DNA from: Escherichia coli
GTDB taxonomy: Bacteria; Pseudomonadota; Gammaproteobacteria; Enterobacterales; Enterobacteriaceae
Strand: one strand, 5' to 3'
DNA length: 31,720 nt
NCBI RefSeq assembly: GCF_003334385.1
Contig: NZ_QOWN01000053.1
The notes beneath the pieces were generated by a model that worked only from the letters and a program-made list of their open reading frames with translations, made no database searches and was not told the origin of the DNA. Both the position numbers and the translations under genes were made by a program. This document shows positions 26,842 to 27,200 of the stretch, in pieces (position 1 is the first letter of the stretch; every line of letters starts with the position of its first letter).

Positions 26842-27063
26842 TTAATTACACAGTCGCATATCCTGAAGTAACACATCTATAGCTAACTTCACAGCGAGAT
26901 CATCCAATTCATCATGGTGAAGCACTCGGATCATTCCCGCAATAGCATCTGCTGAAATAGCTTCCCCAGTAGCAATAACCTCAAGCAACGACACCCCTAG
27001 AATTTCGACTACCCGCTGGTGCAACACACCAAATTCCCCTTCGATTAACATGCAATCACCCAT
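26842..27063 (-). CDS. Small acidic protein, function unknown (about 73 aa), between cI and pL
   Basis: MGDCMLIEGEFGVLHQRVVEILGVSLLEVIATGEAISADAIAGMIRVLHHDELDDLAVKLAIDVLLQDMRLCN; start abuts the OL/pL region; transcribed toward cI. Confidence 0.4.
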   Translation of the reverse strand: MGDCMLIEGEFGVLHQRVVEILGVSLLEVIATGEAISADAIAGMIRVLHHDELDDLAVKLAIDVLLQDMRLCN

Positions 27064-27158
27064 AACAATCAGCCTTTCCCCCTTGAAAATATCACGCGGA
27101 TACCACAAAAAATAAAATATTTTTGTTATCAGTCATTTATAACGTTTTTCATAAAATG

Positions 27159-27200
27159 ATAAATATAGTTATTGCACAACCAGATAACTTAGGTTATCTT
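27159..27200. promoter_or_regulatory. OL operators and putative pL
   Basis: ATAAATATAGTTAT (27159-27172) and ATAACTTAGGTTAT (27184-27197), same half-sites as OR; TTGCAC -35 at 27172-27177 and TATCTT -10 at 27195-27200. Confidence 0.6.

Follow-up and report, generated by a model that had tools for sequence, protein, structure and literature searches.

A small acidic gene at the pL-side border of the cI–N hot-spot of lambdoid prophages and its predicted kinship with YdfK/YnaE

The window analyzed here is a 31,720-nucleotide stretch of Escherichia coli DNA (contig NZ_QOWN01000053.1) that carries a lambdoid immunity region, reversed relative to the usual lambda map. Four genes that frame the locus were assigned by PHROG matches and by the annotation of Escherichia phage 06-3462, which is 99.3% identical. 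PA28 and Stx1a-converting phages also match the region with an identity of at least 99%, and it was found in 51 of 5,426 complete E. coli genomes. The features of the locus are the following:

25234–25530, minus strand: CII (PHROG match and annotation of phage 06-3462)
25647–25871, minus strand: Cro (same evidence)
25982–26689, plus strand: cI-like repressor, 235 aa (same evidence)
26690–26813, no strand: empty cargo slot, 124 nt from the cI stop codon to the terminator, where relatives carry 0–3 variable genes
26814–26831, no strand: GC-rich hairpin common to the convergent cI and small-gene transcripts (terminator scan of the plus strand, folding)
26842–27063, minus strand: coding sequence of the small acidic protein (ORF, PHROG 3946, alignments, purifying selection, 19 of 19 copies intact)
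27073–27080, minus strand: Shine–Dalgarno-like GGGAAAGG, 9 nt upstream of ATG 27063 (read from the sequence)
27086–27094, minus strand: candidate extended −10, TGaTATTTT, with TG at 27094–27093 and the hexamer at 27091–27086 (strand scan and conservation)
27107–27118, minus strand: T-rich block ATTTTATTTTTT, candidate −35/UP zone, with TTATTT at 27115–27110 and an 18-bp spacer to the hexamer (clade comparison)
27139–27152, 27159–27172 and 27184–27197, plus strand: putative OL3, OL2 and OL1 (analogy with the OR triplet)
27172–27200, plus strand: putative pL driving N, −35 TTGCAC at 27172–27177 or TGCACA at 27173–27178, −10 TATCTT at 27195–27200 (analogy with OR)
27388–27702, plus strand: N-like antiterminator (PHROG match and annotation of phage 06-3462)

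The palindromes ATAACnnnnGTTAT upstream of N, at 27184 (no mismatch), 27159 (one) and 27139 (two), mirror the three OR palindromes found between cro and cI at 25908, 25933 and 25957. In the whole window, 21 such sites with up to two mismatches were present, against 9 ± 3 in shuffled sequences. A plausible pL (TTGCAC-17-TATCTT, 27172–27200) overlaps the palindromes at 27184 and 27159, and on the OR side a PRM-like TAGATT precedes the ATG of cI by 7 nt. An Rfam search of positions 25500–27800 gave no match.

The segment that spans OL/pL and the nutL side (27126–27278, about 150 nt) had 17 variable sites among 19 near-identical copies of the E. coli clade, including 27175 and 27176 in the putative −35 of pL and 27143–27149 in OL3. 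In the same copies, the small gene and its promoter (26842–27125, 284 nt) had only two. This variability suggests micro-evolution of the operators and promoter, or recombination, at OL. Directly downstream of N, with an overlap of a few bases, a 93-aa ORF (27711–27992, plus strand) matched PHROG 11941 (E 4e-45, function unknown) and is a conserved early-left gene. On the other side of the region, a repeated unit 'QPQQPEAD...IGLTR.IPGPS' (about 24250–24330 and 24980–25220) has one copy inside a 360-aa ORF (23898–24980) and two others in the stretch that precedes cII; a (TTCCTG)4.5 tract at 24486–24512 encodes QEQEQEQE. These peptide-coding repeats and the TTCCTG tract may be origin or iteron-like repeats.

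The small acidic ORF lies where the preliminary description of this DNA had placed it, between the cI terminator and OL/pL and on the strand opposite to cI. According to the ORF list and its translation, it runs from the ATG at 27063 to the TAA at 26842–26844 on the minus strand and encodes 73 aa, with 13 acidic against 4 basic residues, a pI of 4.3 and a net charge of about −9. The distance from the OL palindromes, first given as about 100 bp, was borne out too: from the positions of the three sites, the start codon lies 76–121 bp away. The same holds for the convergence on cI, with the small gene on the minus strand, the repressor gene on the plus strand and the hairpin at 26814–26831 between them.

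An in-frame ATG at 27051 (Met5) would give a protein of 69 aa. In alignments, it coincides with the start of every relative, so the product may be 69 rather than 73 aa long; both starts are in use among public annotations. GGTGA at 27056–27060 is a possible Shine–Dalgarno sequence for Met5, and the relatives have GAGG, AGGG or AGGAG 5–9 nt before their start codons. The choice between ATG 27063 and Met5 is one that we infer from these comparisons. The PGAP annotation of E. coli genomes names the product a hypothetical protein, and one source labels the E. coli protein 'Phage antitermination protein N'.

The hairpin lies 10 nt past the stop codon of the small ORF. On the plus strand, it is followed by TTTTATTT and is a canonical terminator of cI with a U-tract, whereas on the minus strand side it is followed only by GGAUUUAG. 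The predicted fold had −13.4 kcal/mol (z −3.8) on the plus strand and −15.6 kcal/mol (z −2.6) on the minus strand. Because the minus strand hairpin is not followed by a good U-tract, termination of the small-gene transcript toward cI may be partial.

The small ORF is a member of a catalogued family, PHROG 3946 (function unknown), listed in RefSeq as 'hypothetical protein'. Its residues 6–70 aligned with positions 2–67 of the 67-position profile (E 3.2e-30). With tblastn, relatives were found in the P22-like Salmonella phages epsilon34, ST104, g341c, SPN9CC and MG40, in Salmonella phage S107, and in Klebsiella prophages. Only 54 of 50,697 phage records matched, and neither lambda nor P22 was among these 54. 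A word-index homologue search returned only 10 close relatives; an exhaustive profile search of 1.84 billion representatives reached further and yielded only 64 clusters, almost all of 60–70 aa. The exact Salmonella protein was present in more than 7,000 blocks of an assembly collection, and the exact E. coli protein in at least 1,000 contigs. A full-text literature search for phrog_3946 or for STMMW_03522, its counterpart in prophage BTP1, found no papers.

Among the Salmonella and Klebsiella copies, dN/dS was 0.06–0.22. The window copy is too diverged from its relatives for dS to be estimated, with pN at 0.39–0.49 and pS saturated at 0.71–0.86. All 19 near-identical copies of the E. coli clade were intact, the sole difference among them being a linked change of VS to GA at codons 24–25; the preliminary description had named disruption without phenotype in otherwise identical prophages as an observation that would count against the gene, and none was seen in this set. 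Such a short ORF at a mosaic junction, with near-identical DNA flanked by differing modules, could in principle have arisen by chance, or it could be a conserved DNA linker for module exchange that has no protein product. This account is contradicted by the dN/dS values, by conservation of the family down to 24–30% identity with a coherent three-helix pattern and a confident AlphaFold2 model, and by the start codon, Shine–Dalgarno sequence and promoter-like element, all of which are kept among the relatives. We regard it as extremely improbable, and it is very likely that the small ORF is a real gene with the family and the fold assigned to it here.

In every lambdoid locus that we inspected, the small gene diverges from N or from whichever gene opens the leftward early operon, and it converges on 0–3 highly variable genes that are followed by the repressor gene. 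The same layout was found in 38 IMG/VR loci, with 0–3 cargo ORFs of 84–409 aa per locus; in these loci the cI-like gene was assigned by size and position, and in the others by Pfam annotation. In the relatives, the variable cargo lies between cI and the small gene and has the orientation of cI. It includes BstA (PADLOC E 1.7e-124), the neighbour in phages of the MG40/BTP1 type, the candidate defence protein PDC-M11A, the neighbour in locus L084, a ParA/AAA_31-like protein, and unknowns. The spacer of the window (26690–26813) never occurred apart from this immunity module (50 E. coli genomes). In Klebsiella phage ST974-OXA48phi18.2 (L008:2730–3456), an IS1 with two transposase ORFs fills the slot between the small gene and the repressor region.

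An identical 67-aa Salmonella protein occurs beside BstA, beside AAA_31/ParA-like proteins, or beside a 345-aa unknown. It also lies next to four repressors (217, 229 and 236 aa) and several types of N, and the 236-aa repressor near it has a different Cro-like neighbour. As the same protein stands beside unrelated cargos or none, we rejected the idea that it is the cognate partner of the neighbouring cargo. The slot is empty in the window and the gene is a constant flank elsewhere; thus the small gene is the constant pL-side border of the known cI–N mosaic hot-spot, neither an occupant of it nor a partner of what occupies it.

This corrects the preliminary description, which had put the gene in the rex position. 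Rex-like cargo sits between cI and the small gene in relatives, and the corresponding slot of the window contains nothing. Cargo genes linked to cI, among them rexAB of lambda and bstA of BTP1, lie between cI and pL as the small gene does, and they are expressed in the lysogen, like the BTP1 counterpart of the small gene. They are variable and are co-transcribed with cI from PRM, whereas the small gene is conserved, has a promoter-like element of its own, and lies on the opposite strand with the terminator hairpin between it and cI. None of these cargo proteins is similar to the small protein.

Some distant members of the family have other settings. Two of them, at L013 (4001–5331) and at L010 and L011 (4001–5804), follow genes for a tail fibre and tail-fibre assembly at an apparent prophage end, a position like that of ydfK in Qin; the L013 member converges on an AbiJ_NTD4/Abi_C gene, and in L010 and L011 the small gene is followed by about 1.6 kb in which no gene was called. 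Two distant members are in non-phage chromosomal contexts. The chromosomal member P0042 (L098:2523–5048) adjoins a GGDEF gene, a DUF7661 gene and, two genes away, a DUF2767 paralogue, a setting reminiscent of E. coli K-12, where the ycgZ-ymgABC cluster adjoins pdeG and bluF.

To place the protein among known families, we combined structure prediction and profile comparison. AlphaFold2 run with a 28-sequence alignment gave a three-helix model (helices 2–28, 34–44 and 52–62) with pLDDT 87.5 and pTM 0.74; the model obtained with a 10-sequence alignment (pLDDT 61) was not used. A Foldseek search of AFDB50 returned almost exclusively entries for DUF2767/'FumD', YmgB/AriR, YmgA and the Qin-prophage protein YdfK, and the predicted model has the three-helix fold of YmgB. 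The remote-homology search that the preliminary description had called for produced a match: the family profile aligned over its full length with the YdfK/YnaE profile (hhalign 92%, E 6.8e-7, 69 columns). With the single YdfK sequence, the hhalign probability was 42%, and single-sequence comparisons with YdfK, YcgZ and a DUF2767 protein gave P of about 2–3e-4. From the predicted fold, the Foldseek matches and the profile match, we conclude that the small protein belongs to a superfamily of small enterobacterial three-helix proteins (YdfK/YnaE – YmgB/AriR – DUF2767).

Searches of other collections gave little. Pfam had no significant match, PF10798 included, for the small protein or for any of the 28 family members, and NCBIfam returned only noise for the small protein. 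The best E value in a PDB sequence search with two profiles was 0.085, and no viral fold in BFVD matched below E 0.68.

Judged by sequence, the closest relatives are YdfK and YnaE (PF27475), uncharacterised 'cold shock proteins' of the cryptic prophages Qin and Rac in E. coli K-12. They have 77 aa, compared with 66–73 aa in the small-protein family, and share with it a prophage location, a moron-type placement and the pattern hP-x-V-x-x-[IV]-[IL]-G-x-A-V...G-x-x-[IVP]-[ST]...A-[IL]-x-V-L. Identity is only about 23%, however, and YdfK is basic in its middle and C-terminal part, whereas the small-protein family is strongly acidic. The neighbours of ydfK, at the end of Qin, are pinQ and tfaQ and not pL. 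The small protein is best described as a probable sister family homologous to YdfK/YnaE, not as a member of it. The titles and abstracts returned by our literature search did not indicate a functional study of YdfK or YnaE.

The predicted fold is also that of YmgB/AriR (PF10798; PDB 2OXL) and its operon partners YcgZ and YmgA, the 'two-component connector' proteins. Against the AriR profile, the alignment was in register and not significant (hhalign probability 7%, P 0.005). AriR has an extra N-terminal segment of 25 residues, and its gene is chromosomal and regulated by BluR/MarA, whereas the small gene is phage-borne. The proposed link to AriR draws on a likeness of fold, in a helical protein of very small size, together with this weak in-register match; bundles of three helices readily match one another. 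DUF2767/'FumD' (YdhZ; PF10965) supplied the most frequent named Foldseek matches in AFDB50 (TM 0.7–0.78), and hhalign against one DUF2767 protein gave P 2.9e-4; none of the 28 members matched PF10965 at E ≤ 0.001 (best 0.038, one member), and the NCBIfam FumD model gave E 0.064 and 13 bits, against a cut-off of 82, with one member.

It had been proposed that the small gene could be driven by a CI-controlled divergent promoter. A generic promoter scan flagged neither pL nor a promoter of the small gene, so the assignments made here rest on comparative conservation. In the E. coli and Salmonella clades, a T-rich block, ATTTATTTTT, ends 12 nt upstream of the TG of the candidate extended −10, and the flanking operator DNA is unrelated. 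In an alignment of 63 distinct loci, the module has the order ATTTATTTTT, 12 nt, TGn plus hexamer, an A-rich start zone, Shine–Dalgarno sequence and start codon. The spacing from T-rich block to −10 hexamer is about 17–18 bp and the consensus is TGnTAnnnT, with hexamers such as CATACT, TATGCT and GATACT, and TATTTT in the window. A TGn plus hexamer was found 15–50 nt (mostly 27–34) before the start codon in 51 of the 63 upstream regions, compared with 13 ± 3 after shuffling; common descent links these regions, and the count therefore measures conservation and not independent evidence. Upstream of the module, there is an abrupt switch to unrelated operators, and we found it beside at least six unrelated operator sets.

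The transcript of the small gene would start near 27079, as we infer from the position of this element. Counted from that point, OL3, OL2 and OL1 are centred near −66, −86 and −111 and span about −60 to −118. They do not overlap the conserved promoter element, and they would lie outside the polymerase footprint.

Information on expression was available for the counterpart in prophage BTP1 of Salmonella Typhimurium D23580, a relative with 43% identity whose phage and operators differ from those of the window. STMMW_03522 is on the plus strand at 377620–377790, between N and bstA, both on the minus strand (PMC7067206 Table S5; PMC6333337 S2). Its assignment to the family was made from position, strand and spacing and not from sequence; 36 nt separate its end from bstA, the same distance as in loci L104 and L106. 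The 171-nt coding sequence is probably a 5′-truncated call of the 204-nt family gene, and the Salmonella clade starts with GTG. In lysogens, it had a TPM of 17–53 in all 17 conditions, a 3.2-fold range (PMC7067206 Table S5). Over these conditions, the Spearman rho of STMMW_03522 was 0.10 with N, −0.03 with cro and 0.02 with ral, whereas N, ral and cro of BTP1 correlate with each other at 0.80–0.94; with cI, the correlation was weak and not significant (rho 0.40, p 0.11). Neither the BTP1 transcriptome paper nor the BstA paper (PMC8585504) discusses the small gene. By analogy with this counterpart, the small gene appears to behave as an independent, roughly constitutive unit in lysogens.

These results bear directly on the CI-controlled divergent promoter proposed in the preliminary description. 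Worked out further, this model would have the promoter shut in lysogens and turned on by induction, or else activated in the manner of PRM, with convergent transcription that interferes with cI. The nearness of the OL palindromes to the start codon fits such control, as does a weaker candidate, ATGACT-16-TATTTT (−10 at 27114–27109, minus strand), that would put the centre of OL3 at about −43.5, like OR2 at PRM. The minus strand hairpin, which is not followed by a good U-tract, would allow some read-through antisense to cI, and the weak, non-significant correlation of the BTP1 counterpart with cI points in the same direction. This alternative candidate is not conserved in other clades, however, whereas the −10 at 27094–27086 lies downstream of the operators, is clear of OL and is kept beside six or more unrelated operator sets. 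The BTP1 counterpart is on in 17 of 17 lysogen conditions and does not follow the pL and pR genes, and a stable hairpin separates the small gene from cI. The low dN/dS shows that selection acts on the encoded protein, beyond any effect of transcription as such. We consider the proposal quite unlikely; since the promoter-like element is clear of the OL sites and the BTP1 counterpart is expressed in lysogens without correlation with N and cro, repression by CI is not supported. CI bound at OL3 (about −66) may nevertheless modulate or weakly activate the promoter. A PRM-like promoter at OL was also considered and rejected; no acceptable −10 has the spacing from OL2 that it would need, and the single candidate built on OL3 lacks conservation. 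A promoter of its own and expression in lysogens thus seem probable for the small gene.

We propose that the small gene is a genuine accessory ('moron') gene of lambdoid prophages, whose product would be a strongly acidic, three-helix cytoplasmic protein of 66–73 aa. A weak sigma-70 promoter of its own, of the extended −10 type and carried along with the gene, would drive transcription away from pL, in the direction of the hairpin at which the cI operon ends too. Production of the protein in the lysogen would then not depend on the CI/Cro switch. The orientation would be the only one that gives independent expression in this slot, because reading into N must be avoided. Bearing on the moron assignment, the analysis found a conserved promoter-like element and a hairpin, expression in lysogens for the BTP1 counterpart only, and a match in 54 of 50,697 phage records, lambda and P22 not among them. 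Judging from the characterised members of the fold, the protein may serve as a small adaptor, binding a host signalling protein and thereby changing the physiology of the lysogen. We would give this reading as a whole, a lysogeny-expressed moron with its own promoter and a host signalling protein as its target, about an even chance, and the connector-type action on a host protein is by itself a tentative analogy, somewhat more doubtful than that.

The analogy comes from the characterised connector proteins, which bind signalling enzymes larger than themselves and modulate them. YmgB binds SpoT directly and raises ppGpp (PMC10704370). It activates the Rcs phosphorelay through RcsC/RcsD and independently of RcsF, an effect that RcsD T411A blocks, and binding of YmgB to the cytoplasmic domain of RcsC was reported (PMC11709261). 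YcgZ acts in a cascade involving Lon (PMC5491885). In its most specific form, the small protein would be an AriR/YdfK-like 'connector', the fixed and lysogeny-expressed border of a defence hot-spot in Escherichia (including Stx1a phages), Salmonella and Klebsiella, that reprogrammes a host stress pathway, for example Rcs/capsule or SpoT/ppGpp; we regard this form as rather unlikely.

The preliminary description had pointed to the exclusion or abortive-infection functions that immunity-region cargo often encodes. Many anti-defence proteins are small and acidic, as the protein studied here is, and it could act against other phages by superinfection exclusion, as an anti-defence inhibitor or DNA mimic, or as a regulator or self-immunity partner of the adjacent cargo. 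It borders a proven defence hot-spot that holds BstA and, in L084, PDC-M11A; its BTP1 counterpart is expressed in the lysogen like bstA, and a distant member converges on the AbiJ-like gene. However, no defence family of PADLOC-DB 2.0 matched the small protein at E ≤ 1, and among the viral folds of BFVD no characterised one resembled it. It occurs with unrelated cargos or with none, and the relatives are small cytoplasmic regulator-like proteins of chromosomal loci or cryptic prophages. BstA works with its own DNA-based self-immunity element, and the small gene is not mentioned there (PMC8585504). The suggestion was not supported, and a role of this kind appears rather improbable.

A regulator of the phage life cycle would explain why the gene is locked next to the switch. 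By binding a phage or host factor (e.g., a protease, RecA, N or CI), it would set the lysis–lysogeny decision or induction. Phages of Escherichia, Salmonella and Klebsiella keep the gene strictly next to pL, and so do distant relatives; this position could reflect a function tied to the switch rather than a transcriptional 'safe harbour'. ppGpp, which YmgB raises, is a signal that biases lambda development, and the cascade in which the relative YcgZ acts involves Lon. The gene is nevertheless optional, with lambda and P22 absent from the matching phage records, it is independent of the type of repressor and of N, and other members lie at prophage ends or at non-phage chromosomal loci. We judge a life-cycle role to be unlikely, and return to the lysogeny-expressed moron as the preferred reading.

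For annotation, the small gene marks the pL-side edge of the cI-linked defence-gene slot and should not be taken for rex-like cargo. Our literature searches found no prior description of the kinship of this family with YdfK/YnaE and the AriR fold, of the role as a constant flank, or of the portable promoter; the transcript level of the BTP1 counterpart had already been published in a supplement. The gene is present in Stx1a-converting phages and in BTP1-like phages of invasive Salmonella. If the protein acts on a host signalling enzyme, it would be a widespread, overlooked lysogenic-conversion factor and would give a first functional handle on YdfK/YnaE of E. coli K-12. If it reprogrammes a host stress pathway as a connector, altered surface-based phage resistance, acid or biofilm phenotypes, or changes in prophage induction, including Stx production, could follow.
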